Positions 2,175 to 53,540 of a DNA stretch of 64,000 nucleotides are shown in pieces; position 1 is the first letter of the stretch, and each line of letters starts with the position of its first letter. The DNA is from Escherichia coli (GTDB lineage: Bacteria; Pseudomonadota; Gammaproteobacteria; Enterobacterales; Enterobacteriaceae): the NCBI RefSeq assembly GCF_013122565.1, contig NZ_CP053258.1; one strand, given 5' to 3'. The notes beneath the pieces were generated by a model. That model saw only the letters and a program-made list of their open reading frames with translations, was not told the DNA's origin and searched no databases. A program made the translations under genes and the position numbers.

Positions 2175-2273
2175 GCCGGATGCGGCGTAAACGCCTTAAC
2201 AGGCCTACAAAATCGTCCAAATTCAATATATTGTGGGGACTGCGTAGGCCTGATCGGCATAGCGCATCGGGCA
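2175..2273. repeat. REP/BIME element (two inverted REP units)
   Basis: gccggatgcggcgtaaacgcctt...aggcctaca and tgcgtaggcctgatcggcatagcgcatcgggca, classic REP palindromes. Confidence 0.85.
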
Positions 2274-2449
2274 GTTTTGCATTTATCAGCAGCCTGAATT
2301 TTAACCCTCTGGCGGCTTTACAGTACCTTACGCTATACTAGCCACTGAAAATGCCGGTTCACTTTCTTCGAATCGGCTTTCAATGTGTATTTCACACAAA
2401 TTAATCAACTTCCCCTTCCGAGGATCTGGCCTGAAAGGTCGGATAAGAT

Positions 2450-3793: not shown

Positions 3794-3809
3794 CCCCCAG
3801 AAACATCAA

Positions 3810-3837
3810 CGGCTCCTGAATCAGGAGCCGTCTTATT
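3810..3837. terminator. Bidirectional intrinsic terminator between convergent ytfL and ytfK
   Basis: Perfect inverted repeat cggctcctga/tcaggagccg followed by T-rich tcttatt. Confidence 0.7.
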
Positions 3838-6893: not shown

Positions 6894-7082
6894 TTCTCCA
6901 CCTCGTCTCTGTGAGCGGTGTTAACTTATTGTTTTACTTATACCCTATCGTTAATGAATGCGCCAACTGTGATAGTGTCATCATTTTCAAAGCGTAAAAT
7001 TGTGGCATTCTTCACTGTTCTATAAGTAAGACGTTTATTCTCCCTTTTCTTTCGTATTCCCGATGATAAAAGGATGTCCCTG

Positions 7083-9044: not shown

Positions 9045-9236
9045 TATAAATCATCAACCGCATCCGGCACTTTTGGCGGATGCGCTGCTGGCGCATCTTA
9101 TCCGCCCTACAAGCCATGAACCGTTGACCATATAAGCGCAGCGCATCCGGCTCTTCCTGGCGGAGGCGATGCTGACGCATCTTATCCGCCCTACAAGCCA
9201 TGAACCATAGACCGGATAAGCGCAGCGCATCCGGCA
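9045..9236. repeat. Composite REP/BIME cluster with tandemly duplicated ~85 bp unit
   Basis: Two copies of gatgc(t)g...gcgcatcttatccgccctacaagccatgaacc...ataagcgcagcgcatccggc. Confidence 0.8.
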
Positions 9237-9237
9237 G

Positions 9238-9402
9238 TTATGCCGCACGTTCATCCCGCACCGCTAACACCTCGGGCAAATTCAACTCAATCCAGTCCGC
9301 CAGTGCAGCAACCTTTTCGCTCACCTGCTCGCCCAGCGGCGTGAGGCTGTATTCCACATGCGGCGGCGTTACTGGCGTTGTCCGGCCAATGTTAATAACT
9401 AG
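9238..9402 (-). pseudogene. ytfH: Truncated remnant of HxlR-family regulator ytfH (C-terminal ~45 codons only)
   Basis: Minus-strand frame reads ...PVTPPHVEYSLTPLGEQVSEKVAALADWIELNLPEVLAVRDERAA*; in-frame stop at 9403-9405 leaves at most 54 codons, no N-terminal HTH region. Confidence 0.55.
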
Positions 9403-9500
9403 TTAATTAAAGTGGCATCCTCCCGCATCCTCTCTGATAATGACGGGATGCCGGGAGCAATCATGTCTGCTTCCTGAACTTTCTTCTGACAGATCAATGG

Positions 9501-10502
9501 ATGCCAGTAATGATTAGCGGCGTGCTGTACGCCCTGTTAGCAGGGTTGATGTGGGGGCTTATCTTTGTCGGGCCGTTGATCGTGCCGGAATACCCGGCGA
9601 TGTTGCAGTCGATGGGGCGTTATCTGGCGTTAGGGTTAATTGCGCTACCCATTGCCTGGCTGGGACGCGTGCGTCTGCGTCAGTTGGCGCGTCGCGACTG
9701 GCTTACCGCCTTGATGCTCACCATGATGGGCAACCTTATCTATTACTTCTGCCTTGCCAGTGCCATTCAACGTACTGGCGCGCCTGTTTCCACGATGATT
9801 ATCGGCACCCTGCCGGTGGTCATTCCTGTCTTTGCCAATCTGCTTTATAGCCAGCGCGACGGCAAACTCGCATGGGGAAAACTCGCCCCGGCACTGGTTT
9901 GTATTGGCATCGGCCTGGCGTGTGTGAATGTTGCTGAGTTAAACCACGGACTCCCCGATTTTGACTGGGCACGTTATACCTCTGGCATCGTGCTGGCGTT
10001 AGTTTCCGTGGTCTGCTGGGCGTGGTATGCCCTGCGCAACGCCCGCTGGCTGCGGGAAAATCCCGACAAACATCCGATGATGTGGGCAACGGCGCAGGCG
10101 CTGGTCACGCTGCCGGTTTCTCTCATCGGCTATCTCGTCGCTTGTTACTGGCTGAATACGCAAACGCCGGATTTCACGCTTCCTTTTGGCCCGCGTCCGT
10201 TGGTTTTTATCAGCCTGATGGTCGCAATCGCTATTCTCTGCTCGTGGGTGGGCGCGCTTTGCTGGAATATCGCCAGCCAGCGTTTGCCTACGGTGATCCT
10301 CGGCCCGTTAATCGTGTTTGAGACGCTGGCGGGTTTGCTGTACACCTTTTTGCTACGCCAGCAATTGCCATCGCTGTTAACGTTTAGCGGCATTGCGCTG
10401 TTAGTGATTGGCGTGGTGATTGCGGTTCGGGCGAAGCCGGAGAAACCGTTGAGTGTCACTATTACCGACGTTAACAAACCCACTGCCACGAAAGGGTTAT
10501 AG
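9501..10502 (+). CDS. ytfF: Inner membrane DMT/EamA-family transporter YtfF
   Basis: 333 aa polytopic membrane ORF; synteny immediately upstream of ytfE; exact start uncertain. Confidence 0.85.
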   Translation: MPVMISGVLYALLAGLMWGLIFVGPLIVPEYPAMLQSMGRYLALGLIALPIAWLGRVRLRQLARRDWLTALMLTMMGNLIYYFCLASAIQRTGAPVSTMIIGTLPVVIPVFANLLYSQRDGKLAWGKLAPALVCIGIGLACVNVAELNHGLPDFDWARYTSGIVLALVSVVCWAWYALRNARWLRENPDKHPMMWATAQALVTLPVSLIGYLVACYWLNTQTPDFTLPFGPRPLVFISLMVAIAILCSWVGALCWNIASQRLPTVILGPLIVFETLAGLLYTFLLRQQLPSLLTFSGIALLVIGVVIAVRAKPEKPLSVTITDVNKPTATKGL

Positions 10503-10512
10503 CTTTACCTAA

Positions 10513-10535
10513 AAGATGCATTTAATATGCATCTT
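10513..10535. promoter_or_regulatory. NsrR-type operator upstream of ytfE
   Basis: aagatgcatttaatatgcatctt: 9-bp perfect inverted arms, 27 bp upstream of ytfE start; matches the known NsrR palindrome. Confidence 0.75.
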
Positions 10536-10561
10536 ATATTTTTCACCATGAGGTATCCGCT

Positions 10562-11224
10562 ATGGCTTATCGCGACCAATCTTTAGGGGAACTGGCACTC
10601 GCTATTCCTCGCGCTTCGGCACTGTTTCGTCAATATGATATGGATTACTGCTGCGGCGGTAAGCAAACGCTGGCGCGCGCGGCAGCACGTAAGGAGCTGG
10701 ATGTTGAGGTCATTGAAGCCAAACTGGCAAAGCTTGCAGAACAACCGATTGAGAAAGACTGGCGTAGCGCCCCGCTGGCGGAAATCATCGACCATATCAT
10801 CGTGCGCTACCACGATCGTCACCGCGAACAACTGCCAGAGTTGATCCTGCAAGCTTCTAAAGTCGAGCGCGTTCACGCCGACAAACCGAGCGTGCCAAAA
10901 GGGCTGACAAAATACCTGACCATGCTGCATGAAGAGCTTTCCAGCCACATGATGAAAGAAGAGCAGATCCTCTTCCCGATGATCAAACAAGGCATGGGCA
11001 GCCAGGCGATGGGGCCAATCAGCGTAATGGAAAGCGAGCACGATGAAGCGGGCGAACTGCTGGAAGTGATTAAACACACCACCAATAACGTCACACCGCC
11101 GCCGGAAGCCTGCACCACCTGGAAAGCGATGTATAACGGTATTAATGAATTGATTGATGACCTGATGGAGCACATCAGCCTGGAAAACAATGTGCTGTTC
11201 CCACGCGCGCTGGCTGGTGAGTGA
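10562..11224 (+). CDS. ytfE: Iron-sulfur cluster repair di-iron protein YtfE (RIC)
   Basis: 220 aa; ScdA_N plus hemerythrin-like region (HH..EE motifs); synteny. Confidence 0.93.
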
Positions 11225-11232
11225 TTCGTTCG

Positions 11233-11265
11233 ATCAACGATCCTGACATGTACGGGATCGTTGAT
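11233..11265. terminator. Hairpin between convergent ytfE and downstream repeat-protein gene
   Basis: 11-bp perfect stem atcaacgatcc/ggatcgttgat with 11-nt loop; weak T-tract. Confidence 0.5.
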
Positions 11266-11276
11266 TGTTAAGAGGT

Positions 11277-12770
11277 TCAGTCTTTCAATGGACGTAATTC
11301 ATTGTTGTAACTGGTGTAACTGCCTTCAACGGTAAGTAGATTGCCGTTTTCATCAAGATGCGCCGCATTGAGTTGTCGAGTTTCATTACGCCGCTTCGCA
11401 TCACGAACCAGCCCATCGCCTACGTAATAAATATAGTGGTCATCATGAGCAAAGGTATCTGATAATTGACCATTGGCGTATTTAAACCACGTCCATTGGC
11501 CTTTAAGCTCAAATTTCTCAACCGTGTCTTTATCAATAAAATACGTATAGCGATCGTCATGTGCCAAATAATTTAATGTTGTGCCATCGGGGCTTTTATA
11601 CCACTGCCATTGCCCATTGATATCAAAAATAGTCACATCATCCCTTGCAAGGAAATAAACTTTATTCCCTACAACATTAGCACCTTCCTGTAATTCTTGT
11701 TGCGGGTCTGGTAAATGAATGACCGAAAGCGTTTTTTCGACCGCAGAAATATACTTCACCAGATAGAGCGAATCTTTATATTGCGCCACATTCTTCGTCA
11801 GCGGGCGAAAATATTCCGGATCAACATCAGGAATGGTCGCAACCCGGCAGTCATTGGCACGCCAGGAAGCATCACGCGTCATCCAGGTTACTTTATCCCG
11901 CTGTAGGTCAAATGTATTCCGGCAATCTTTACCGAACGAATAACGTTTCTCCCCGTCCTTATCGCGATAAATCAGCAGGGAACCGGCTATCCAGCGCACA
12001 ATATGAAAGGTGTCCGGATCGGCGTCGATGGCATCTCCGTTCACAAAGACCTGCGATTTTGTCCGCCAGATTGTATCCCAGGGTGCGGGATGCCCCCAAC
12101 TTTCACAACTGTTTGGCAAATAAAGAATATTCCGTTGGGCCCAGGGTTTAATATCAAGAATAGAATATCCTTGGGTACTACCCAACCAGCGTCCCTGAAA
12201 GTAAAGATTGCGACGATCTTTCAGCACATCCGCGGAATCAACTGAATTCATCCTCCCCCCCACCTGTTGCAGCGAATCCATATCGACCTGCTTTTCGCCG
12301 TGATTATCATCCGTGCGTTCGCCGTCAAAATAGAGGCTGTCTTTATCGGCAGCAAAACGCCCCCATGCGCGGAATGTTGCGGCATCGACTTTCGGTGTTC
12401 CCGGCGGGTTCTGAACTATTTTCCCTGCCCATAAAATATGGCGACCATCGGTCAACCAGTCGAAACGCCAACTGCTGTTAGTTCTGATATTAGTGCCAGC
12501 ATCTACCTGAACAAAATCATTATTGATATCATCAGGAGAATCATATTTATCATCAGTGCCGTTGGGTACGCGGCGAAGTTGCTTAAACTTCACCTGCGAT
12601 AAATGAATATCCGGAAAATAGAGTCCGTAACCATCACTATCTTCAACGATATATTTTGTGCCTTGCCCCCACGGCTGGTAGTAAAACGCAGCATAAGGCA
12701 CACCAGAGCAAGCTATTGAAGCGGTTGAAAATAAAGCCAGTGCGAGACAAACAGGTTTAATTGGCAACAT
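11277..12770 (-). CDS. Secreted repeat protein, paralogue A (DKNYY-like repeats), function unknown
   Basis: 497 aa; N-terminal signal peptide MLPIKPVCLALALFSTASIACSG; repeated D-K-x-x-LYF/DA-x-TF blocks; ATG with AGGA RBS. Confidence 0.8.
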   Translation of the reverse strand: MLPIKPVCLALALFSTASIACSGVPYAAFYYQPWGQGTKYIVEDSDGYGLYFPDIHLSQVKFKQLRRVPNGTDDKYDSPDDINNDFVQVDAGTNIRTNSSWRFDWLTDGRHILWAGKIVQNPPGTPKVDAATFRAWGRFAADKDSLYFDGERTDDNHGEKQVDMDSLQQVGGRMNSVDSADVLKDRRNLYFQGRWLGSTQGYSILDIKPWAQRNILYLPNSCESWGHPAPWDTIWRTKSQVFVNGDAIDADPDTFHIVRWIAGSLLIYRDKDGEKRYSFGKDCRNTFDLQRDKVTWMTRDASWRANDCRVATIPDVDPEYFRPLTKNVAQYKDSLYLVKYISAVEKTLSVIHLPDPQQELQEGANVVGNKVYFLARDDVTIFDINGQWQWYKSPDGTTLNYLAHDDRYTYFIDKDTVEKFELKGQWTWFKYANGQLSDTFAHDDHYIYYVGDGLVRDAKRRNETRQLNAAHLDENGNLLTVEGSYTSYNNELRPLKD

Positions 12771-12802
12771 AGCGTCATCCTGAAGCTGTTAGCGTGAAGA
12801 GG

Positions 12803-13960
12803 TTATTTAAATAAGGGTTTAAGACCGCTCGGGGGTTGCTTCACCGATGACCAACCTCCCTTACCTAAGTTATAACGCAGCCATTTACCTTGTTGGACGT
12901 GCTCTTTCCCAACTCCAGTCGCTTGTTGAGTGTAAAGCTGCCCGTCTGTTGATATAAACGTGTTAGTTAATCCCCAACTACCACCTGCTTCAAGTGAGTC
13001 GGTGAGATCCTCTGGCTTGAGATTAATCAACTCCCCTTCGCCCAGGGCGTTGGTTGTGACTTTATAAATTTGGTTCTTATATAAACCGGTATTGCGAACA
13101 AACAGATAAAAATATTCCGGATCAACTCGCGGCAGCGTTTCATAAATACACTCACTGCCCGCTGGAGTGGCTTCATGTTTGAGCCAGGACACGTTATTCA
13201 GACCAATATTAAAAGGTGCACAGCGATAGCTGGTATCCTCCAGCTCATAGTCACGCTCACCGCTTTTATCGCGATAAACTAAGCGTTCGCCAGGCATCCA
13301 GCGGATTATCTGAAAGGTTTTACGATCGGCGGGCAGCGGCTTGCCATTAACAATCACCTGCGAATTTGTCAGCACAACAAATTGCAGGGCGGAATCATGC
13401 CGCACGATTTGAAACCCGTCAGCGCTTCCCAACCAGTGCCCCTTATGCCAAAGACTATTTTTATCACGCAGTAAATTCCAGATGTCCGTCTCTTCAAGCG
13501 TTGACATATCCACCTGCTTATCACCGCTATTATCATCGGTACGCTGACCGTCAAAATAGATACTGCGTTTATCAGCAGCGAAAGCGCCGAATGCCTGAAA
13601 ACTGGCAGCGTCGACTTTAGGTTTACCGGGGGGGTTTTTCAGGACTTTGCCAGACCAAAGGACAGAGCGTCCATCAGTGAGCCAGGCATGCTGGCAATCC
13701 CCCTCGTCATCACAATCGAACTTATCGGGATTAAAATCTGACAGTAACCGGCAATCTTGTTTATTGGTTAAATTGGCAATGCGCCAGAGGCGGGAAAAGT
13801 TAACGTCCAGCAGTTCGGAGAGGATCTCATCTTTTTGCCCCTTCTCTTCGGCAACGTAAACCGTGCCTTTCTCCTGCTGGCGGTAATAAAAATCCGCGCC
13901 CCAGGAAGGTGAAATGGAGAGCGGTAATGCGGTGATTAATAACCAACTTCGCGTAACCAT
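12803..13960 (-). CDS. Secreted repeat protein, paralogue B (DKNYY-like repeats), function unknown
   Basis: Signal peptide MVTRSWLLITALPLSISPSWGA; block WLTDGRSVLWSGKVLKNPPGKPKVDAASF...DKRSIYFDGQRTDDNSGDKQVDM nearly identical to paralogue A; start placed at ATG 13960 (track ORF starts at TTG 13984). Confidence 0.75.
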   Translation of the reverse strand: MVTRSWLLITALPLSISPSWGADFYYRQQEKGTVYVAEEKGQKDEILSELLDVNFSRLWRIANLTNKQDCRLLSDFNPDKFDCDDEGDCQHAWLTDGRSVLWSGKVLKNPPGKPKVDAASFQAFGAFAADKRSIYFDGQRTDDNSGDKQVDMSTLEETDIWNLLRDKNSLWHKGHWLGSADGFQIVRHDSALQFVVLTNSQVIVNGKPLPADRKTFQIIRWMPGERLVYRDKSGERDYELEDTSYRCAPFNIGLNNVSWLKHEATPAGSECIYETLPRVDPEYFYLFVRNTGLYKNQIYKVTTNALGEGELINLKPEDLTDSLEAGGSWGLTNTFISTDGQLYTQQATGVGKEHVQQGKWLRYNLGKGGWSSVKQPPSGLKPLFK

Positions 13961-14079
13961 AGTGATCTCTGAAATGAGTGGCAAAGATCCACAGTAAGTC
14001 CGCGCCTGGGGGGATGTCGATGACGGTAAGTTTTTTTAGGAATGTATAAAGACAAAGGAGATTGCTGACAAAGTGAGCT

Positions 14080-14190
<111 letters not shown>

Positions 14191-17428: not shown

Positions 17429-18064
17429 TCACATGCATGGGGTCACAAGGAGCCAGCTTAAAAGCGTCTCCTTGATAACCTTATGTCTGTTCTCCAAAGC
17501 CTCAGGAGATATCATACTGATGTGATAAACCAACCCTAAAGTATGTTGGTTAAGAATATAATATCCAGCAAGAGCGGCAAGGCTAATGTTTACCTGTAAT
17601 GGATCTATATCTTGCTTAAAGATATTTTGTTTTTTTCCTTCATCAAGCAACCTTTCCATAATCTCTAAATGCGAGTGGTTAATTTCGGGCAAACGAGTTG
17701 ATTTCTTGTAGTGCTCCCCTCGACTTTGGTTTTCGGAATGAATTATCTTTAAAAACCAAGGATTCTTCACATAATAATCCCACGTAAAATCAATAAATTT
17801 TTCAATGGATTGCAATGGGTTTAGTCCAGTAAAGTCCAGATCTCTTTCTTTTTGCCGGATGTCATTACACGTATATTCAAGGACTTCAATAAACAAATTC
17901 TCTTTATTACCAAAATGATGATAAACAGTCTGCTTACTACAACCGGCTGCTTTAACAATATTATCGACCCTGGCACCTTCATAGCCATACTCTGCAAATT
18001 CATTGATAGCGCACAGTAATAATTTTTCTTTCAAAATTTGCACTTTACTAGTATCAAAATACAT
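17429..18064 (-). CDS. TetR/AcrR-family transcriptional regulator
   Basis: N-terminal TetR HTH ([28 protein letters not shown]); AT-rich; start placed at ATG 18064 with GAGGG RBS (track ORF begins at GTG 18070). Confidence 0.85.
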
Positions 18065-18430
18065 CTTCACCCCTCACACTAATCTTGCCAACCTATTATA
18101 TACTCTTTTACCGCGTGACCACGCACATTTTTCATACAAAAATCATCATTATCTTACAGAGCATTAAACCTACTTACATTGTTTCGTTACTGTGAAACAG
18201 ACAGAAAATTTTTCCTTGATGCATATTTGTTAAAAATGGAATATGGCTTTAATTAATTATATTCATATAATGAATATTTAACTATAAATAATTAATTCCA
18301 TTTATTTTCAAAGAGTTATAATTTTAAATATGATCTCCCTCACGAATCAACCAACTAGATGGTTGGTTCAAATAAAATCTATAGGCATCTTTGTCTCCAT
18401 GATGAATCCTGTATTTAAAGAGGTCCAAAA

Positions 18431-19222
18431 ATGAAATCAAAAAAACCCGTTGCTATTATTACCGGTGCTGCCCGTGGTATCGGTAAAGGTTGTGCTATTG
18501 AACTAGCTCGCGCTGGATTTAATCTTCTAATAAATGATCGACCAGATAAAGACAGCATCGAAAAACTTAAAGCAACTCAAAAACTATGTATCGCTGAAGG
18601 TGTTGAAGTCATAACGTTTCCAGCCAACATTGGCGATTTAACGTTACATGAAAAGATGCTCGACGCGGCGCAAAATCAGTGGGAGCGTTTGGACTGCCTG
18701 CTCAATAACGCCGGAATTTCGGTGAAAAAGCGTGGTGATATTCTCGACCTGGAGCCAGACAGTTTCGACGATAACATTGCCATCAATACCCGCGCACCTT
18801 TCTTCCTCGCCCAGGCTTTCAGCAAGCGCCTGTTGGCGCAACCCAAACCAGAAGCTGAACTACCGCATCGCTCAATTATTTTTGTCAGCTCAATTAACGC
18901 CATCATGCTGGCGATGAATCGAGGTGAGTACACCATTGCCAAAACAGCTGTATCTGCCGCTGCCCGCCTGTTTGCCGCACGTCTTTGTGAAGAGCAAATT
19001 GGCGTTTATGAAATCCGCCCAGGTTTAATCAAAACCGATATGACTATTCCAGCAACAGCTTATTACGACGAACTGATCGCTAAGGGGTTAGTGCCATGGG
19101 GTCGTTGGGGTTTTCCACAGGACATCGCCTCCACTGTCCGTGCAATGGCGGAAGGCAAACTGATTTACACCTGTGGTCAGGCGGTCGCCATCGACGGCGG
19201 CTTAAGTATGCCACGCTTCTGA
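18431..19222 (+). CDS. Short-chain dehydrogenase/reductase (SDR) family oxidoreductase
   Basis: TGAARGIGKG nucleotide-binding motif, NNAG, catalytic Y-x3-K (YTIAK). Confidence 0.88.
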   Translation: MKSKKPVAIITGAARGIGKGCAIELARAGFNLLINDRPDKDSIEKLKATQKLCIAEGVEVITFPANIGDLTLHEKMLDAAQNQWERLDCLLNNAGISVKKRGDILDLEPDSFDDNIAINTRAPFFLAQAFSKRLLAQPKPEAELPHRSIIFVSSINAIMLAMNRGEYTIAKTAVSAAARLFAARLCEEQIGVYEIRPGLIKTDMTIPATAYYDELIAKGLVPWGRWGFPQDIASTVRAMAEGKLIYTCGQAVAIDGGLSMPRF

Positions 19223-19231
19223 GGCTGAACC

Positions 19232-20074
19232 ATGAGAGATCTGTTACATCGCCCGGATTTATTCAGCATCAATACCGCGACGCTGGGCTATAAAATGCCT
19301 CTGCCCGCCCTTATTGATGCTTGTGCCGCACGCGGCATCGGTGCGATTGCCCCCTGGCGCAGAGAGTTGCAGAGCGAAGATCTTCAGCAAATCGTCCGCC
19401 AGCTTGCCGCCAATAACATGAGCGTTTCTGGTTTATGCCGTAGCACCTACTACACCGCGCCGACGCTGGCAGAGCGCAAGCTGGCGATTGATGATAACCG
19501 CCGGGCGCTGGACGACGCAGCGATGCTGAACGCCGCCTGTTATATGCAGGTGGTTGGCGGTCTGCCAACGGGCACTAAAGATCTGTATGAAGCGCGGGAG
19601 CAAGTGAAAGAAGGGGTTCGCCAGTTGCTGTCACATTCGAAAGATGTCGGCGTGCCGATTGCACTGGAGCCACTGCACCCGATGACTGCTGCCGATCGCT
19701 CTTGCCTCTGCTCGCTACGTCAGGCGCTGGACTGGTGTGATGAACTCGATCCCGATGGTGAGTTTGGCCTCGGCGTGGCGGTCGATGTCTACCACGTCTG
19801 GTGGGATCCGGATCTCACCAGTCAGATCCTGCGCGCTGGAAAACGGATCCTCGCGTTTCATGTTTCCGACTGGCTGGTGCCGACGACCGATCTGGTCAAT
19901 GATCGGGGAATGCCGGGAGATGGCGTCATCAATATTCCGTCAATTCGTCGGCTGGTTGAAAACGCCGGATTTAATGGTTCTATCGAATTAGAAATATTTT
20001 CTTCATTCTGGTGGGAAAAGAATATCAACCAAATACTGGATAAAAGTATTAACGGACTTTCTTATTATTGTTAA
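19232..20074 (+). CDS. Sugar phosphate isomerase/epimerase-like TIM-barrel protein (xylose isomerase-like fold)
   Basis: 280 aa; family assignment by overall pattern only; 9 bp after SDR stop. Confidence 0.6.
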   Translation: MRDLLHRPDLFSINTATLGYKMPLPALIDACAARGIGAIAPWRRELQSEDLQQIVRQLAANNMSVSGLCRSTYYTAPTLAERKLAIDDNRRALDDAAMLNAACYMQVVGGLPTGTKDLYEAREQVKEGVRQLLSHSKDVGVPIALEPLHPMTAADRSCLCSLRQALDWCDELDPDGEFGLGVAVDVYHVWWDPDLTSQILRAGKRILAFHVSDWLVPTTDLVNDRGMPGDGVINIPSIRRLVENAGFNGSIELEIFSSFWWEKNINQILDKSINGLSYYC

Positions 20075-20223
20075 ACATCACACTATATTTTTCTCTCGAA
20101 ATTAGTTGATTGTTTAAATTTGCATGTTTTAGAAAGTTATGAGTGAAGTAATAAATCAATAAATTAAATATCTTACAGAGCATTGCGAGTGTTAGGTATT
20201 TATAATCAAATAGGGATTGGCAT

Positions 20224-21765
20224 ATGAGCAAGATTAATACTGCAGAAATACTGGTCGCAGGTATTAAAGATGGCGCAACAATCGCCATTAGCGGTAATGG
20301 CGGTGGAATGGTTGAAGCCGATCATCTACTACAAGCTCTGGAAACACGGTTTCTGGAAACCGGGCATCCATGTAACCTTACGCTTATACACTCATTAGGT
20401 GTAGGAGACCGTGAACACAAAGGCAGTAACCGTTTTGCTCATAAAGGAATGTTAAAGCGTGTTATTGCAGGACATTTCACATGGTCACCAAGAATGCAGG
20501 CTCTGGTTAAGAATAATGAGGTCGAGGCTTATTGCTTTCCTAGCGGAGTTATTCAGACATTATTACGTGAAATAGGCGCTGGACGTCCAGGACTGTTCAC
20601 CCATGTCGGGGTAGGAACTTTTATTGATCCGCGTAATGGAGGAGGGAAATCTAATTCACGAACGACAGAGGATCTGGTAGAGCTAATTGAAATTGATGGA
20701 GAAACAAAGCTACGCTATCGCCCATTTAAAGTTGATTACGCAATTGTGCGCGGTACTTATGCGGATTCACGCGGTAATATTAGCCTGGAAGAAGAAGCCG
20801 TCGATCTGGATTGCAATTCTATAGCTCTAGCTGCCCATAATAGCGGTGGTAAAGTCTTTGTGCAGGTACGTGACATTCTTGAAACAGGTGCGATTGAACC
20901 CAGACGAGTAAAAATACCCGGAATCTTAGTCGATGGCGTCGTGGAATATAGAGATCAACAACAAACATATCTTGGTGGTTACGATCTTACTATCAGCGGC
21001 CAGCATCGTCGTCTTTGTTCTCAAAACTCTATTGAACTGGTTTCAAACCCAATACGTCGATTAATTGCACGCCGTGCAGCACGCGAGTTAGTTGCTGGCG
21101 CATCCACAAACTTTGGCTTTGGCATGCCAGGAGGGATCCCAGGTATTGCTCTGCGTGAAGGAGTCCCTTTTGATACCCTTTGGCTCAGCGTGGAACAAGG
21201 TGTGCATAATGGCATGATGCTGGATGATGCTCTGTTTGGCTGTGCTCGCAATGCTGATGCGATAATTCCTTCTCTTGAGCAGTTTGATTTTTATAGTGGT
21301 GGTGGTGCCGATATAACTTTTCTCGGTATGGGGGAAATGGATCAGTATGGAAACGTGAATGTTTCCCATCTCAACAATAACCTTATCGGACCAGGCGGTT
21401 TTATCGAAATTGCACAGAATGCCCATAAAGTGGTGTTCTGCGGCACGTTTGATGCCAAGGGTAGCAAAATAAACGTCACAAATGCGGGCCTGGAAATCAT
21501 TCAATCCGGCCAGGTAGCAAAACTTGTTTCACAAGTAGAAGAGATAACTTTCAGCGGAGAATATGCGCAACAACGTAAACAGGATGTGTTGTACATTACC
21601 GAGCGCGCTGTATTCCAGTTAACGCCACAGGGTGTGGAACTAATTGAGGTTGCCCCTGGCGTGGACATTGACCACGACATTCTGCCGTATATGGCCTTCC
21701 GTCCAATTATCAAGCACCCACGCCTGATGGAAAGTAGTCTGTTTACGCCGATGGAGGATGCATGA
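20224..21765 (+). CDS. Acyl-CoA:acetate/3-ketoacid CoA-transferase, fused alpha-beta (YdiF-like, family I)
   Basis: 513 aa; clear colinear similarity to E. coli YdiF as recalled (GHFTWSPR, GVGTFIDPRNGGGK, FDFYSGGGADITFLGMGEMDQYGNVNVS, ITERAVF). Confidence 0.85.
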   Translation: MSKINTAEILVAGIKDGATIAISGNGGGMVEADHLLQALETRFLETGHPCNLTLIHSLGVGDREHKGSNRFAHKGMLKRVIAGHFTWSPRMQALVKNNEVEAYCFPSGVIQTLLREIGAGRPGLFTHVGVGTFIDPRNGGGKSNSRTTEDLVELIEIDGETKLRYRPFKVDYAIVRGTYADSRGNISLEEEAVDLDCNSIALAAHNSGGKVFVQVRDILETGAIEPRRVKIPGILVDGVVEYRDQQQTYLGGYDLTISGQHRRLCSQNSIELVSNPIRRLIARRAARELVAGASTNFGFGMPGGIPGIALREGVPFDTLWLSVEQGVHNGMMLDDALFGCARNADAIIPSLEQFDFYSGGGADITFLGMGEMDQYGNVNVSHLNNNLIGPGGFIEIAQNAHKVVFCGTFDAKGSKINVTNAGLEIIQSGQVAKLVSQVEEITFSGEYAQQRKQDVLYITERAVFQLTPQGVELIEVAPGVDIDHDILPYMAFRPIIKHPRLMESSLFTPMEDA

Positions 21766-23834
21766 GTCAGCTTGATGACACCATCCTTGATGCGCTGACA
21801 CACGTCACTTTCCCAAAGGGGTTTGTGTCAGCAGAGCCAACACCAATTGTCACCGTTGAGGATGTTGATTACCCGATCTGGCACGTTGATGCGCTGGTCG
21901 TTGGTAGCGGCGCAGCAGGATTACGTGCGGCAGTTGAACTTAAACGCCGCCAGCAAAATGTGCTGATCGCTACCGCCGGGTTATATATGGGGACGTCGGC
22001 ATGTTCTGGTTCCGATAAACAGACACTGTTTACCGCCGCTACCGCGGGCAACGGCGACAACTTCACCAAACTGGCAGAGGCACTGGCGAGCGGTGGGGCG
22101 ATGGATCACGACACCGCTTATGTCGAAGCGGTAGGTTCTCTGCACACTCTAGGCGGGTTGCAATATCTTGGTCTGGAATTACCGGAAGATCGCTATGGCG
22201 CGATTCTTCGTTATCAAACCGACCATGACGAAGCTGGGCGTGCAACCTCGTGTGGGCCGCGTACCTCAAGGTTAATGGTGAAAGTGCTGTTGGAAGAAGT
22301 ACAGCGCCTCGCCATTCCAGTGTTGACCAGTGCAACAGTGATTAAACTGCTGCATCAGCGTGACGAAAACGGCGAAGACCGCGTGGCAGGGGCAATCCTC
22401 GCGACCGGTCATCGCGCCCATAACCCATGGGGGCTGGCAATTGTGACTGCGCCCAATGTGGTACTGGCAACGGGCGGACCGGGCGAGCTTTATCGCGACA
22501 GTGTTTATCCACATAAATGCTTCGGCTCGCTGGGGCTGGCGCTGGAGGAAGGTCTGACGCTAACCAATCTGACCGAAAGCCAGTTTGGTATAGGCACACC
22601 GCGCAGCACGTTTCCGTGGAATTTGTCCGGCACCTATGTGCAGGTGATCCCGTATATCTATTCCGTGGATGCTGAGGGTAACGAGTATAACTTCCTCGCG
22701 GATTACTATCGCACCACCCAAGAGCTGGCTTCAAACATCTTCCGTAAAGGCTATCAGTGGCCGTTCCACGCCACGCGGGTAATGGATTTTGGCTCCAGCT
22801 TGTTAGATATGGCGGTGGCGCAAGAACAGCAACATGGTCGTCTGGTGTTTATGGATTTCAATCGTAATCCTGAAGCGGTGCCTGGTGATCTACCCTTCTC
22901 ATTAGATCGACTGGACGACGACGTTCGCGCGTATCTGGAAAATAACGACGCTCTGGCACCATCGCCCATCGAACGGCTGCAACGAATGAATCCGCTGTCT
23001 ATCTCGCTGTATAAGATGCACGGTTACGATCTCACCACGCAGCCATTGCAGTTTGCCATGAATAATCAGCACATGAATGGCGGCATTGAAGTGGATATCT
23101 GGGGACAAACATCCCTGCCCGGTTGTTTTGCAGTGGGAGAAGTAGCCGGTACTCACGGCGTTACCCGACCTGGCGGCGCGGCGCTGAATGCCGGACAGGT
23201 TTTTGCCGTGCGTCTGGCGCGCTTTATTGGTTGCACACAAAAGCGGTCTGTTGAGGAGGATGTCGCGCAGCTGGTAGCCTCATCTCTGCATATAGTCAGA
23301 GAAGTTATCGCTCAGGCACTGGCAAACGAGAACGGAATGGCGCTGGTAACGGTGAAAGAAAAAATCCAGGCGCGAATGTCTGATTACGCTGGATTTATTT
23401 GTCATGCCGATAAAGTTCGTCACGCCACCCGTGACGCCCTGCTGTTAAGTGAGTTTGTACAACAACACGGTTTGACCATCAAACATGTTGGCGAAATTGC
23501 CGAACTATTTATGTGGCGGCATATGGCACTGACTTCTGCCGCCATATTGACACAATTGACGCATTATATTGACGCAGGTGGCGGCAGTCGTGGGGCGCGG
23601 ATAATTATTGATCACTATGGGGAAGGTCTACCACAAACTCGACAGGGTGCAAAAGAAAAATGGCGTTTTAGATTGGAGTCTGAAAATGAAAGAGAATCAC
23701 GAGCAACGATTCAGCTTAACAATGGAGAATTTATAATAAATAAAAACAAGATACGTCAAATAATCAATTTCAAAAATAATTATTTTGAAAAAAATTGGCC
23801 GGAGTTTCTCCTTGGAGAAATCTATATAAAATAA
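21762..23834 (+). CDS. FAD-dependent oxidoreductase (fumarate reductase/succinate dehydrogenase flavoprotein-like), with unusual AT-rich C-terminal extension
   Basis: N-terminal dinucleotide-binding motif VVGSGAAGLRAA; 690 aa; ATGA start/stop overlap with upstream CoA-transferase. Confidence 0.8.
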   Translation: MSQLDDTILDALTHVTFPKGFVSAEPTPIVTVEDVDYPIWHVDALVVGSGAAGLRAAVELKRRQQNVLIATAGLYMGTSACSGSDKQTLFTAATAGNGDNFTKLAEALASGGAMDHDTAYVEAVGSLHTLGGLQYLGLELPEDRYGAILRYQTDHDEAGRATSCGPRTSRLMVKVLLEEVQRLAIPVLTSATVIKLLHQRDENGEDRVAGAILATGHRAHNPWGLAIVTAPNVVLATGGPGELYRDSVYPHKCFGSLGLALEEGLTLTNLTESQFGIGTPRSTFPWNLSGTYVQVIPYIYSVDAEGNEYNFLADYYRTTQELASNIFRKGYQWPFHATRVMDFGSSLLDMAVAQEQQHGRLVFMDFNRNPEAVPGDLPFSLDRLDDDVRAYLENNDALAPSPIERLQRMNPLSISLYKMHGYDLTTQPLQFAMNNQHMNGGIEVDIWGQTSLPGCFAVGEVAGTHGVTRPGGAALNAGQVFAVRLARFIGCTQKRSVEEDVAQLVASSLHIVREVIAQALANENGMALVTVKEKIQARMSDYAGFICHADKVRHATRDALLLSEFVQQHGLTIKHVGEIAELFMWRHMALTSAAILTQLTHYIDAGGGSRGARIIIDHYGEGLPQTRQGAKEKWRFRLESENERESRATIQLNNGEFIINKNKIRQIINFKNNYFEKNWPEFLLGEIYIK

Positions 23835-23937
23835 ACGCCTTTTAAATCGGTAGCTATTAAATAAATATTTTATGATTTGCAAAATTCACGCTTTTACATT
23901 GTGAGTATTTTCTATTGATAATATCAAAGGTTTAATC

Positions 23938-25218
23938 ATGAAAAAAATCAAGCACTATAGGTGGCATATTATCGTCTTAATATGTTTCATCACTGTAATT
24001 AATTATTTGGACAGAACAGCATTAGGCGTGGCCGCGCCCACAATAATGCAAACGATGGGGATAACTAAAGAGCAATATTCATGGGTTGTCAGTGCATTCC
24101 AGTTAGCATATACAATTGGACAACCTGTAATGGGATTCTTTATTGACCTTATCGGTCTGAAATTTAGCTTTTTCATTTGCATTATAATCTGGGGACTTGC
24201 CACTATGGGGCACGCATTAGCGGGATCCTGGCAAGGTTTGGCCTTTATGCGTGGCCTGATGGGAGTAAGTGAAGCCTCCGTCTTTCCCGCAGGGATAAAG
24301 ACTGTATCGACGTGGTTTCCTGCTAAAGAACGCGGTATTGCTGCGGGATTCTTCAACACGGGTACATCTCTTGGTGCCATGCTTGCTCCACCGCTTATTG
24401 CCTGGTGCATAATGTTCCATAGTTGGCAATTCGCATTTCTGGTTTCTGGCTGTCTGGCATTATTTGCGGCAGTGATGTGGTTTATCTTTTATAAAGACCC
24501 CAAAGATGCCAAAGGACTTTCTGAAGAGGAAAGACACTATATAGAGTCTGGGCAAGAAAAACATCTTGATTCTAATAAAAGTAAAAAAGCAACCATTCTT
24601 CATGTTATTAAAAAACGCAATTTCTGGGGTATTGGCATTACCCGTTTCCTGGCAGAACCAGCTTGGGGAACAATCAACTTTTGGGTACCTATATTTTTCG
24701 TTGAAACATTGCATTTCAGCTTAAAAGATATAGCAATGTTTATCTGGCTCCCGTTTTTATTAGGTGACTTGGGTTGTTTATCTAGTGGTTTTATCGCTAA
24801 GTTTTTTCACGATCGCGGGGTTAGCCTTCTTAATGCACGAAGAATTACATTTACATTCGCTGCAACAACGATGATGTCGATTGGTTTGGTTAGCATCGTC
24901 ACTAATCCGTACATTGCTGTATTACTAATTAGTATCGGTGCATTCTCACATCAATGCCTATCTACTGTTGTTGCCACTATGGGGGCCGATCTTTTTGAAA
25001 AAGAAGAAGTCGCAACAGTAGTTGGATTATCGGGAGGGTGTGGATATACAGGGCAACTGATATTTAATATATTCATTGGTGTATTCGTTGCTGCAATTGG
25101 CTTCTCGACATTCTTTGTGATACTTGCCTTCCTGGATATTATTGGTGCCATTATTTTATGGTCTGTAATTAGACCACCGAAACTTGTTGAACAAACAAAT
25201 TTAGTAACACAATCGTAG
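23938..25218 (+). CDS. MFS transporter, anion:cation symporter (ACS)-like, probable organic-acid permease
   Basis: 426 aa, 12-TM pattern, N-terminal YLDRTALGVAAP motif. Confidence 0.85.
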   Translation: MKKIKHYRWHIIVLICFITVINYLDRTALGVAAPTIMQTMGITKEQYSWVVSAFQLAYTIGQPVMGFFIDLIGLKFSFFICIIIWGLATMGHALAGSWQGLAFMRGLMGVSEASVFPAGIKTVSTWFPAKERGIAAGFFNTGTSLGAMLAPPLIAWCIMFHSWQFAFLVSGCLALFAAVMWFIFYKDPKDAKGLSEEERHYIESGQEKHLDSNKSKKATILHVIKKRNFWGIGITRFLAEPAWGTINFWVPIFFVETLHFSLKDIAMFIWLPFLLGDLGCLSSGFIAKFFHDRGVSLLNARRITFTFAATTMMSIGLVSIVTNPYIAVLLISIGAFSHQCLSTVVATMGADLFEKEEVATVVGLSGGCGYTGQLIFNIFIGVFVAAIGFSTFFVILAFLDIIGAIILWSVIRPPKLVEQTNLVTQS

Positions 25219-25269
25219 TTTTTATTTTTACCTATAGAATTTTAATCGAAAAAAAATAAAGGAAAGATT

Positions 25270-25749
25270 ATGTCTCAAACAGAAATTATTCTTCCTTCAG
25301 GAAGAGAACTTACTCCAGGTGAATATGGTTATGCCAATCTGGAACCTGGCGATCACTACCAGACTCCCGGTCTTAACGTAACAGAGTCACAGATTGTTGC
25401 TTTTGCGGGGATAAGCGGTGATTTTTTCGATGTTCATATGGATGATGAATTTGCAAGGGAAAAAGGATTTCCAGGACGCATTGCCCACGGTCTGTTAGGT
25501 TTAGCATTGACGGACGGCCTGAAGAATCGTTCTATTGTACGTTTACGTGCAGTTGCTACATTAAACTGGAACTGGTCATTCTGTGCACCATTATTGCCTG
25601 GAGATCATATTCACGCCGTTATTACTGTTGTTAAAAAACGCCCCACCAAACGTGAAGACCGAGGCATTGTGACTTTTGCTTTACAATTGTTTAATCAACA
25701 TGGAAAGATAATACAGCGAGGCGAAACTCTGCTGATGATGATGCAATAA
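25270..25749 (+). CDS. MaoC-like (hot-dog fold) dehydratase / enoyl-CoA hydratase
   Basis: 159 aa; GRIAHGLLGLALTDGL hot-dog motif; AGGAAA RBS. Confidence 0.8.
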   Translation: MSQTEIILPSGRELTPGEYGYANLEPGDHYQTPGLNVTESQIVAFAGISGDFFDVHMDDEFAREKGFPGRIAHGLLGLALTDGLKNRSIVRLRAVATLNWNWSFCAPLLPGDHIHAVITVVKKRPTKREDRGIVTFALQLFNQHGKIIQRGETLLMMMQ

Positions 25750-25760
25750 TCTGAGTTTGA

Positions 25761-25797
25761 AATACGTACCAACGAGTATGCTGGTACGTATTTCTTC
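25761..25797. terminator. Intrinsic terminator between convergent catabolic operon and HipA-like gene
   Basis: 10-bp perfect stem aatacgtacc/ggtacgtatt, 12-nt loop, followed by tttcttc. Confidence 0.65.
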
Positions 25798-25868
25798 GCA
25801 AACGCACTGTTTATGCTCTCTCCCTCATAATGACTGTTTCATCTAACTAATATTTCTAAATAACTGTC

Positions 25869-27137
25869 CTAAATTGACGACCTGAATGCCTCTGCCATTA
25901 ACTCTTGCTCACGATCAGGTAATCTAAGACGCTCGGCAATAGTTTGCCACTGACTGACAATCCCTCTAAAATTAGCAATAATGTCATCAGCTTCCGTCAA
26001 ACTAAGTCGAAAATACTCTGCAACTTCTCTAGCTAATTCCAAATCAAGTGCATTATCATTTTCCGTAATATTAAGCTTTAAACCGTCAGATCTGGAAACA
26101 GGATTCAAATCATATGCTTCAGAAAGCCGCCAACCTTTTCCCGGTATCAAGATATATCCATGATTACGTAAATGATCATCGGTATTAGAAACAAGAATAT
26201 TAAAAACAATTCTGGACCAGAGTTCTTTAAGGTCAGTATTGGTCTGCGCTCCGTGCCTGATAAGAACATCTGCTAATTCCAGATAACTTACACCTGTAGA
26301 GGCATCTTCACCATCCTGATGTCTGGTTAGTGTCATAGCCGAAGCAAAATGCAGACGCCTTCCCGCATTAGTGCGGTCAAAACGACGAACCATAAAACAA
26401 TGGTAATTGCTGGCAAATTTATGCGCCTGAGCAGGTGCAACATTCAGTCCACAGCCAACAGCAAGCGCATTAACGACCATTTCCCATCCACCAACATCAT
26501 ACTCATCTTTTGCACTGGGAAATTTAGCGATGTAAAGATGTCCGGCTTCATCAACCACACTGGCTTTTGGACGTGCACCCCCTAATGATCCCCCCGGAGC
26601 GATTAGCATTCTTAACCATTTTTGCCCCATGAGTTCTTTATTATCAGGATCTTCTTCAATTGCCCGGCTAGCCCTTTCCAGACTCGCTATTTCGGTAAAT
26701 GGTGGGGCTGCAACATTAATGCGGTTATCAAGAAACTCTCCAGCGTCTTCACGTTTGTATCGAAGAGCCCCAACCCGATAAAGATCATGAACACCTAATA
26801 GATAGTCAGACTCATAAAGGTGGGAGTCTTTATCAAATAACCCATCTCGAATATCCCTCTCAAAACGACGCTTCATTAGCATACGCCCCCAACGATCCGG
26901 GCAGGAATCACTAAACGCACCAAATTTATCCTTTGGAGGAATTGGGTACTGTGCTCCCTCATACAACATTATTTCAGGATCTAACTGAATGAAATTAAGT
27001 GCACGATCTGCAAGCGCCTTTTTATCGTACTCAAACTCAAATATCTCACGCGCCCGAGTGCGACGACTGTGTAAATAACCAATACGCGCAGGACCATCCA
27101 GGCCTTCCCAATCCGCATACACTCCGATTAATGCCAT
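25869..27137 (-). CDS. HipA-family serine/threonine kinase (type II toxin-like)
   Basis: 422 aa; P-loop-like GGSLGGARPK and catalytic NTDDHLRNHG motifs in HipA order; AAGGA RBS. Confidence 0.8.
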   Translation of the reverse strand: MALIGVYADWEGLDGPARIGYLHSRRTRAREIFEFEYDKKALADRALNFIQLDPEIMLYEGAQYPIPPKDKFGAFSDSCPDRWGRMLMKRRFERDIRDGLFDKDSHLYESDYLLGVHDLYRVGALRYKREDAGEFLDNRINVAAPPFTEIASLERASRAIEEDPDNKELMGQKWLRMLIAPGGSLGGARPKASVVDEAGHLYIAKFPSAKDEYDVGGWEMVVNALAVGCGLNVAPAQAHKFASNYHCFMVRRFDRTNAGRRLHFASAMTLTRHQDGEDASTGVSYLELADVLIRHGAQTNTDLKELWSRIVFNILVSNTDDHLRNHGYILIPGKGWRLSEAYDLNPVSRSDGLKLNITENDNALDLELAREVAEYFRLSLTEADDIIANFRGIVSQWQTIAERLRLPDREQELMAEAFRSSI

Positions 27138-27150
27138 AATTAATTTCCTT

Positions 27151-27642
27151 TTATCGGTTTTTTATCGGTTTTTTTATCGGTTGTAATAGTGCAGCAAGAG
27201 AGGTTGACGTTTCCCCTGGAATAGTTGGCGTTGAGTCTTTTGCCAGTGCTGTTAAATCCGTGGTGAGATGACCTTCTTTCTCGCGTTTCGTCTGAAATGA
27301 GGCTGTCTGAATCCCTTCTTCATTCTTAACTGATGAACGAGAAAGCCCTCTTTTTTTAATCAAACGGGAATCCTGGAGCTGATGCCCTAAGGCGTCTTCA
27401 GCTGCAAGCTTATTTAAATCCGTTTCCAGGCCCAAAACCTGCATCACAGACAAATATGCCCCTATCGTGACCCCTGCACTTCCTGCCTCCAGAGAACGCA
27501 ATGTGATTGGCGACATCCCTGCACGCTCAGCAACTTGCTTTGCGGTTAGCTTACGTCGTAAACGAGCAAGTTTCAGACGCTCACCAAATTCACTAAGCAT
27601 CTGATTCGTATAAGGGAGTAACGGTGCTGTTTTTTTACCCAT
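27151..27642 (-). CDS. XRE-family HTH protein (HipB-like putative antitoxin) with long low-complexity C-terminal tail
   Basis: 163 aa; HTH ~residues 16-75 ([23 protein letters not shown]); 13 bp upstream of kinase gene on same strand. Confidence 0.75.
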
Positions 27643-27663
27643 AGTGATAATATTTTATCTTTT

Positions 27664-27682
27664 TATGGCTATGATAGCCATA
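27664..27682. promoter_or_regulatory. Palindromic candidate operator upstream of the HTH/kinase operon
   Basis: tatggctat-g-atagccata, 9-bp perfect inverted arms, ~22 bp upstream of HTH start codon. Confidence 0.55.
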
Positions 27683-28000
27683 ATATTAGCATTTATTAGA
27701 TTGAACGCACCTGCAAAGCGTTCAGAATTATGGAAGAGATAATATCTTATCTTTTTATATATAAAAACAATAAAATAACAGCACATTAATATATAACTTA
27801 TTGTTTTTATTATCTTACAAGGGAGACACTCGCTGTATTGATGCTTTTGTCGTGTTTTATGTGTAAAAAACATGACACGAACTACCAGCGGCGAGACTGG
27901 GGGCTGGGGGCCTGGTATGGGTACTGCGAACTTTTTATAAAAGGAATAGCAAGAGATTTATGGAGGGAACGTCTATTTCTGCGGTTTTTATCACTTAAAA

Positions 28001-28030
28001 GCAAAACGCCGACCAATGGTCGGCGTTTTT
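28001..28030. terminator. Intrinsic terminator downstream of rplI (rpsF operon)
   Basis: Stem aacgccgacc/ggtcggcgtt with 4-nt loop, flanked by A-run and T-run (bidirectional capable). Confidence 0.8.
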
Positions 28031-29094: not shown

Positions 29095-29508
<414 letters not shown>

Positions 29509-29816
29509 TTATTCAGCCTCCTGTCTGGGTCAGCCGAATCCCGGGGAGGCAAGGAACGTGTTAAAGGTCGGCTGAAAAATGACGCGTTATAGTACTGACA
29601 TACCCCGCTAAACTCAAGGGCAGAGCCGAAATAAATCTCCCCTTTCGCAAATAACCTCTAAACCGCTGATTTGGAGTTCATCACACTTCATCATGGTGTT
29701 TTTTCGAACAACTGCATCAGAAATGGTCACCATCAACTTCTTTATCATTGATTAAAATTAAATCAGAAGATCATCACAGAGGAGAGCACACAAAGTCAGC
29801 CGTCGAGGAGGTATCT

Positions 29817-44580: not shown

Positions 44581-44664
44581 CTATTAAGAAGAACCAAAAA
44601 TTTAACGCTATGCATACGATAAAAAATGCGCCAGTCTACATACACTGACGCTAATGATTAGTCA

Positions 44665-46266: not shown

Positions 46267-46293
46267 ATTCTTCCAGTCAGATGTTCAATCTTA

Positions 46294-47595: not shown

Positions 47596-47645
47596 AAATA
47601 AATCCTTAGTTCTGTTGGTAAGATATTCTATTTATAGGTTTTATA

Positions 47646-48539: not shown

Positions 48540-48867
48540 GCCTACCTCATCATAGTTTTATTGTTCATATATACAAACAACGTTTTTAAATACAAACTAA
48601 AATGAGTATACCCAACCTCAGAAATGAGTCAAATTTAGCCAATCACAGAAGTGATACAGCTAAGCTATTGATATATTTGGAGTAATTATGTCGGAGACCT
48701 GCATAAAAAACAATCGCAGTTCTTTTTTTATCCGTTTTATGACCAGTATCACGCTAAAAAAGGACTGATGGGCTCAACAGCAGTCAAGGAACGCGAGGGG
48801 GTTAATTTACTTGAATTATAATTCTCCCTAGAATGGTGCATTACTCATGGTAAGGGAAATAGTCATT

Positions 48868-49647: not shown

Positions 49648-49723
49648 GGGTATTTTCCATTCGAAGCCCGATACGTAAAAATTATCGGGCTAACAAAATA
49701 TCCATTGAATGGATAGCGATGAA

Positions 49724-53114: not shown

Positions 53115-53540
53115 TCACTCCACCAGCAATAATTTATAAAGCGGTTGATTCTCTTCAACCAAATCGGCAAGCGTGTAGTTATCCAGTTCCGTAAGAAAAC
53201 TTTGCACGGCCTTAGAAAGTGCCTGTTTCAACCGACAGGCAGGTGTAATGTGGCAAAACTCACTGCTGCAATTCACCAGCGATAAAGGTTCCAGCTCGCG
53301 CACCACATCACCAATACGTATCGCACTCGCCGGTTTACCCAGGCGAATGCCGCCATTTTTTCCACGAACAGCAGTCACGTAGCCGGCACGACTAAGTTGA
53401 TTGATTATTTTGACCATATGATTACGGGAGACGCCGTAGACGTCAGTCACTTCAGAAATACTGGTCATCCGCCCTTCTGGCAATGACGCCATGTAGATCA
53501 GCGCACGTAATCCGTAATCAGTGAAACTCGTTAACTGCAC
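53115..53540 (-). CDS. nsrR: Nitric-oxide-sensing Rrf2-family repressor NsrR
   Basis: 141 aa [49 protein letters not shown]...; three-Cys cluster. Confidence 0.93.

Follow-up and report, generated by a model that had tools for sequence, protein, structure and literature searches.

Does the inverted repeat just upstream of ytfE in this Escherichia coli DNA serve as an operator for NsrR, the NO-sensing repressor of the Rrf2 family, and has it come through intact in a neighbourhood that has been heavily remodelled? We analysed the whole stretch of 64,000 nucleotides (the window), in which a first-pass annotation had placed a near-perfect NsrR operator before ytfE. We assign a probability of about 0.93 to the reading that positions 10513–10535 are the orthologue of the classical ytfE operator, through which NsrR represses ytfE in trans, and we infer NsrR binding, ytfE repression, and a response to NO at this site. 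Since the site is orthologous to the best-known NsrR operator, it belongs to what is already known, and the result serves mainly as a positive control, in which the strongest known NsrR operator was correctly recognised from raw sequence. Furthermore, NO-responsive control of ytfE has very probably been kept in a strain whose ytfF–ytfE neighbourhood is heavily remodelled.

Sequence, symmetry, and position of the operator

Direct reading of the sequence gave AAGATGCATTTAATATGCATCTT (23 bp) at 10513–10535. Its arms, AAGATGCAT and ATGCATCTT, pair without a mismatch over 9 bp around a 5-nt centre, which confirms the 9-bp perfect arms described in the first-pass annotation; in the 11-1-11 register, a single pair is asymmetric (positions 10/14; T10/T14). 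The operator and its two half-sites are as follows.

10513..10535, unstranded: predicted NsrR operator, a 23-bp 11-1-11 inverted repeat AAGATGCATTT-A-ATATGCATCTT (from the sequence, a matrix score of 29.6 bits, and orthology to the K-12 and CFT073 ytfE operators)
10513..10523, plus strand: left half-site AAGATGCATTT, the same as the K-12 and CFT073 half-site
10525..10535, minus strand: right half-site, read on the minus strand as AAGATGCATAT, differing from the consensus half-site only at position 10

The left half-site sequence, AAGATGCATTT, appears as the 11-bp motif in Table 2 of PMC5320621, and the ending of the right half-site is also found in the hcp half-site AACATGTATAT. Between the operator end and the ytfE ATG lie 26 bp (ytfE ORF start at 10562), and the distance of 27 bp given earlier agrees with this when counted as 10562 minus 10535. 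The ytfF ORF ends at 10502 and the operator begins 10 bp 3′ of that stop, not immediately after it as had been described.

We then evaluated how often such symmetry arises by chance. The 64-kb window holds three perfect 9-5-9 palindromes, compared with a mean of 0.245 in composition-matched shuffled sequence, and at least one was present in 22% of the shuffles. Because such palindromes often arise by chance, palindromy alone is weak evidence and the specific sequence is the improbable part: the operator sequence, at up to 3 mismatches, gave no match in 100 shuffles. An Rfam search of the window returned no RNA family at the operator. The two further perfect 9-5-9 palindromes, at 3809–3831 and 28005–28027 (ACGGCTCCTGAATCAGGAGCCGT and AACGCCGACCAATGGTCGGCGTT), are both G+C-rich and are probably terminators.

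Weight-matrix scoring against known NsrR sites

The operator was scored with a symmetrised log-odds matrix built from Table 4 of PMC5320621, using 25 sites after omission of ytfE and of one of two duplicate sites. The following scores were obtained; the 27 published sites had been chosen with a matrix trained on ChIP peaks, that of ytfE among them, and the present matrix is therefore not fully independent of ytfE-like sequence.

29.63 bits: window allele AAGATGCATTTAATATGCATCTT (10513–10535)
30.11 bits: K-12 allele AAGATGCATTTAAAATACATCTT
30.96 bits: CFT073 allele AAGATGCATTTAAAATGCATCTT
25.84 bits: hcp site AAGTTATATTTAATATACATGTT, the best training site
13.05 bits: runner-up position in the window, TACTGGCAGTTTCAATAACTTTT (44739–44761)

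The window operator outscored all 25 non-ytfE training sites (maximum 25.84 bits), and the K-12, CFT073, and window alleles fell within less than 1.4 bits of one another. Positions 10513–10535 thus hold an 11-1-11 repeat of the form AAGATGCATTT-N-AAATGCATCTT with a score like that of known sites. Two outcomes had been named in advance as grounds for giving up the assignment, a poor matrix score and divergence from the K-12 operator. Neither was observed, with 29.6 bits at the operator versus 13.05 bits at the runner-up in 64 kb, and with only 2 of 23 positions differing from K-12.

Comparison with known operators

Alignment with K-12 and with a second E. coli revealed two substitutions relative to the K-12 operator, A14T and A17G, with 21 of 23 positions identical and the same distance before the ATG. 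An operator is hence present as first proposed, but not as the K-12 allele. The two sites share an orthologous locus, the 26 bp to the ATG, an identical left half-site, and an identical NsrR; they differ in that K-12 has A at both 14 and 17 where the window has T and G, and the K-12 operator forms a weaker RNA hairpin than that of the window. The loci differ as well, the ytfF–ytfE intergenic region measuring 107 bp in K-12 and 59 bp in the window, where the ytfF stop lies 10 bp from the operator.

The CFT073 ytfE operator is one base apart from that of the window and carries G17, and thus has the same perfect 9-bp arms. A17G restores the symmetry of the arms as in CFT073, so G17 in the window is the CFT073 state. 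Whereas the CFT073 operator is a perfect 11-1-11 repeat, T14 in the window disrupts the innermost symmetric pair but one. The same T14 gives a central TTTAATAT, which is also found in the ChIP-positive hcp operator of E. coli; the latter resembles the window site in its 11-1-11 form and its centre and is covered by a ChIP-seq peak, but belongs to another gene and has weaker arms (25.8 versus 29.6 bits). The ytfE operators of Enterobacter, Lelliottia, Buttiauxella, Trabulsiella, Raoultella, and related genera have the same 23-mer as the window, 25–27 bp before ytfE, whereas their flanking DNA is only ~75% identical to that of the window.

Published work bears directly on these sites. Among 11-1-11 NsrR sites, that of CFT073 ytfE (AAGATGCATTTAAAATGCATCTT) ranks first by PatSer and lies beneath a ChIP-seq peak; with nitrate, ytfE was 69.6-fold up in the triple mutant on which the RNA-seq was done, and induction was also seen in the wild type by RT-PCR (PMC5320621). 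A site for NsrR upstream of ytfE/dnrN was predicted across enterobacteria (Rodionov 2005). In the crystal structure of the Streptomyces protein ScNsrR with DNA, the central 7 bp of the 23-bp operator have no base contacts, and altering them leaves affinity unchanged (PMC9338935). Operator position 14 falls in this contact-free centre. A14T and A17G are natural alleles, and harm to binding by either is unlikely.

The regulated gene and its repressor

The genes concerned are encoded in the window as follows.

9510..10502, plus strand: ytfF (DMT/EamA transporter), stop TAG at 10500–10502, with a C-terminus 9 codons longer than in K-12
10550..10553, plus strand: Shine-Dalgarno GAGG of ytfE, read from the sequence
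10562..11224, plus strand: ytfE, the regulated gene, encoding the RIC/YtfE di-iron protein (NF008221, 415.9 bits; cut-off 254)
53115..53540, minus strand: nsrR, encoding the trans-acting [Fe-S] repressor, GTG start (NF008240, 292.8 bits; cut-off 182)

Both gene assignments of the first-pass annotation stood, with ytfE passing the NF008221 equivalog cut-off (415.9 versus 254 bits) and nsrR lying in the same window at 53115–53540, on the minus strand, above its own equivalog cut-off. The window NsrR is identical to K-12 NsrR over 141 of 141 residues, with its GTG start region and upstream sequence identical too, and the cluster-ligand cysteines of the cognate repressor (Cys91, Cys96, and Cys102) are present. 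Since the protein that reads the DNA is unchanged, knowledge of binding sites from E. coli K-12 and CFT073 transfers directly. YtfE of the window is 97% identical in amino-acid sequence to K-12 YtfE, and the GAGGTA block before its start is mostly kept over the 70 ytfE loci among the matches listed (70–90% of sequences per column). Exact-protein look-ups of YtfF (333 aa) and YtfE gave no match; on an independent contig, ytfF was called as 330 aa.

Conservation of the operator and distribution of its alleles

We scanned one genome per species with the pattern AAGATGCATTTANNATRCATCTT and obtained at least 120 loci. Among the matches listed, together with K-12 and strain RMDEC465, the operator was located 23–28 bp upstream of a ytfE homologue in 69 loci, mostly at 26 bp. 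The window operator is placed likewise, within the promoter region of an established member of the NsrR regulon and at the position that corresponds to the K-12 site. Across 70 aligned ytfE upstream regions among the matches listed, the operator was the most conserved block. The alleles among at least 70 ytfE-linked sites, window included, were those of CFT073 (24), K-12 (22), and the window (19). Among the matches listed, the window 23-mer was found 25–27 bp upstream of ytfE in at least about 18 other species, in genera including Enterobacter, Lelliottia, Buttiauxella, Trabulsiella, Raoultella, Cedecea, and Dryocola. The pattern AAGATGCATTTANNATRCATCTT also occurred without a nearby ytfE homologue, at loci L007, L010, L014, L019, L024–L026, L040, L062, L067, and others, for example in Legionella, Maritalea, Morganella, Vibrio, Ancylobacter, and Paraburkholderia; presumably they serve further genes under NsrR control, such as hmp.

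Exact-word searches of 5,426 complete E. coli genomes, whose counts are lower bounds because megablast requires 28 exact bases and thus some flank, found the K-12 allele in at least 4,168 and the CFT073 allele in at least 959; the window allele, searched with either flank, was found in 0 of 5,426. The operator keeps 21 of its 23 positions within alignment blocks that are only 60–81% identical to K-12. That the 23-mer is nearly invariant inside such a divergent tract clearly marks purifying selection on it, in the manner of a phylogenetic footprint. The analysis adds only two mildly new points, both minor and population-genetic in kind, namely the rarity of the allele and the divergence of the tract that holds it, and their chief value lies in that footprint.

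A divergent tract and a 20-bp deletion around the operator

We investigated identity to K-12 per 100 alignment columns on both sides of the operator, which revealed the following feature.

10088..10866, unstranded: divergent tract of ~0.8 kb, defined by identity to K-12, covering the 3′ third of ytfF, the intergenic region, and the 5′ half of ytfE, with the operator at its centre

Identity was 60–93% at ~10088–10866 and 97–100% at 9388–10087 and 10867–11166. The first-pass annotation had described an intact site in a ytfF–ytfE unit flanked on either side by a deletion and an insertion; the operator is indeed intact, but the unit itself is not untouched, the operator lying amid this short, strongly divergent tract. 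Each Escherichia locus set against the tract showed 84.5–87% identity to it and other genera showed ~75%, and the Escherichia loci were 90–97% identical to one another. The amino-acid sequence of YtfF within the tract is little different from that of K-12, and the tract therefore has the appearance of DNA taken up by recombination from an unsampled relative. Homologous recombination is the likely origin, and the donor was probably an unsampled lineage outside all sampled Escherichia, nearer to them than to other genera. Salmonella was rejected as the donor, its operator reading ...AAAATACAAC and its flanks being different, as were the genera that share the window 23-mer, on account of flanks that are only ~75% identical.

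A deletion of 20 bp relative to K-12, at 10468/10469, removes the K-12 ytfF stop codon. The ytfF ORF runs 9 codons on and ends with the TAG at 10500–10502, within GGGTTATAGC, a conserved block upstream of ytfE. This extension accounts for a ytfF stop so near the operator, and the ytfF–ytfE intergenic region shrinks from 107 bp in K-12 to 59 bp in the window. An independent contig from a public sequencing run (L129; Logan SRR11451224_175), found via the 497-aa ORF downstream of ytfE, was 100% identical over 4,937 bp, corresponding to window positions 9177–14113. It takes in both the operator allele and the 20-bp deletion, along with most of the two-ORF island between ytfE and cycA. This identity indicates that the sequence is real and not an assembly artefact.

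Promoter elements and proposed regulation

The upstream region holds two candidate elements.

10484..10499, plus strand: candidate NarL/NarP 7-2-7-like element TGCCACG-AA-AGGGTTA (TGCCACGAAAGGGTTA), matching 10/14 consensus positions
10523..10528, plus strand: putative −10 hexamer TAATAT (K-12: TAAAAT), at operator positions 11–16, by inspection of the sequence

With a −10 element at 10523–10528, transcription would start close to the operator's right edge, and NsrR sitting on the operator would thus occlude RNA polymerase. In the 2006 work of Bodenmiller and Spiro, the ytfE inverted repeat reportedly overlaps the −10 element. A consensus sigma-70 scan detected no canonical −35/−10 pair in either the window or K-12, which fits an activator-assisted promoter; full-text literature searches for the ytfE transcription start site gave nothing usable. 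Against the 7-2-7 consensus TACYYMT-NN-AKRRGTA, the candidate element matched 10/14 positions in the window and 11–13 in other genera, while shuffled sequences mostly gave 8–9, and among the matches listed the best 7-2-7 match was located at a fixed offset of −29 or −30 from the operator in 68/70 loci. Candidate NarP sites are marked in ytfE upstream regions in Fig. S2 of Rodionov 2005.

Reviews of NsrR and related work describe holo-NsrR dimers that bind such operators and repress, until NO destroys or nitrosylates the cluster and the DNA is released (PMC5320621, PMC9338935, PMC2884951). In a Salmonella nsrR mutant, ytfE mRNA was up 544-fold, placing ytfE among the most strongly de-repressed targets (PMC2884951). 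On this model, a [4Fe-4S]-NsrR dimer encoded at 53115–53540 would bind the 23-bp 11-1-11 repeat with one subunit per AAGATGCATTT half-site. The operator would cover the likely −10 hexamer (TAATAT, 10523–10528) and the likely transcription start, and NsrR, once bound, would shut out RNA polymerase and hold ytfE silent. On exposure to NO, the NsrR cluster would be nitrosylated, NsrR would leave the DNA, and ytfE would be expressed.

Alternative explanations

We considered whether the palindrome acts as a weak intrinsic terminator or insulator for ytfF transcripts, instead of or besides its role as an operator. In such a case, the 9-bp hairpin followed by AUAUUUUUCA would halt read-through from ytfF into ytfE, the ytfF stop now lying only 10 bp upstream. 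A scan for terminator-like structures flagged exactly 10513–10535 with the tail ATATTTTTCA and gave no match in the orthologous K-12 region, but the same scan yielded 0.6 matches per shuffled 400 bp. RNA folding gave −10.9 kcal/mol (z = −5.8) for the window and −4.0 kcal/mol (z = −0.8) for K-12; this stability is, however, an automatic by-product of operator symmetry, and any G17 allele, that of CFT073 included, would form the same stem. The T run of the window (TTTTT) is longer than that of K-12, but the U tract is interrupted and the stem is AT-rich, with 3 of 9 pairs being G-C. Moreover, conservation follows the NsrR consensus base by base, beyond what mere pairing would explain. Both the terminator role and the block of read-through are accordingly quite unlikely, and the operator reading is preferred.

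A different possibility accepts the operator but supposes that A14T and A17G shift its set-point, making ytfE regulation quantitatively unlike that of K-12, either by tighter repression via the better right arm or by a weaker promoter via the poorer −10. In line with this, the window allele is present in 0 of 5,426 complete E. coli genomes, A14T lowers the putative −10 match from 5/6 (TAAAAT) to 4/6 (TAATAT) and breaks the inner symmetry, and arm symmetry is better at position 17. Against it, less than 1.4 bits separates the three alleles on the matrix, the window allele is resident in at least about 18 other enterobacterial species among the matches listed, and ScNsrR affinity is indifferent to changes in the central region (PMC9338935). 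We therefore regard an altered set-point, by either route, as improbable. It is likewise unlikely that the probably imported tract as a whole, with its operator allele, 20-bp deletion, and stronger hairpin with a T run, retunes NO-responsive ytfE or insulates it from ytfF read-through, and a measurable change of regulation by the tract is not likely. Finally, the palindrome could be a chance feature, given that 22% of shuffled windows hold a perfect 9-5-9 palindrome, or the target of another regulator (Fur, FNR, or IscR), since ytfE is reportedly de-repressed in fnr and fur mutants (PMC9268430). The ytfE promoter, however, has no recognisable Fur or FNR site, and the effect of fnr and fur is thought to be indirect (PMC9268430). 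A match to the NsrR consensus of 29.6 bits, in vivo binding of NsrR to the orthologous site by ChIP-seq in CFT073 (PMC5320621), and a position kept in 70 loci among the matches listed render this origin extremely improbable, to the extent that chance or another regulator is effectively excluded. An NsrR operator orthologous to those of K-12 and CFT073 is the reading we retain.

Wider context of the window

Most of the window is 97.4–98.9% identical to K-12, and only the short tract and several islands are divergent. The best complete E. coli genomes are only 98.5–99.1% identical to it, indicating an E. coli-group lineage that is poorly represented among the 5,426 genomes. Upstream of ytfF, the window lacks qorB together with two-thirds of ytfH from its 5′ end (K-12 4433179–4434363), with the junction at ~9367–9388 and a ytfH remnant at 9142–9367. 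The E. albertii type strain (L004) has this junction too, at 90% identity, which points to an old alternative architecture and not to a recent lesion. Between ytfE and cycA lies the two-ORF island.

11277–12770, minus strand: hypothetical ORF of 497 aa, a paralogue of the 393-aa ORF
12803–13984, minus strand: hypothetical ORF of 393 aa, called as 385 aa on the independent contig

The two proteins had no Pfam or NCBIfam match above threshold, and the 393-aa ORF had one precomputed faint DKNYY match. Of the 5,426 complete E. coli genomes, 269 carry the island, with about 92.5% identity. E. albertii has the 497-aa ORF at least, its contig ending inside the 393-aa ORF.

Two larger islands are absent from K-12. 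One, of ~10 kb at 17811–27998, separates the regions of ytfA and yjfZ and carries genes for an SDR, a xylose-isomerase-like TIM barrel, a CoA-transferase, an FAD oxidoreductase, an MFS transporter, and a HipA-like kinase; the other, of ~5 kb at 44585–49725 between rlmB and yjfI, carries genes for a galactarate/altronate-dehydratase-like protein and an MFS transporter, along with two additional ORFs. Four RNA families were detected by Rfam above the gathering score.

2209–2251, plus strand: ES036 sRNA
2331–2388, plus strand: STnc450 sRNA
6960–7082, minus strand: ES239 sRNA
29488–29572, minus strand: RpsF leader
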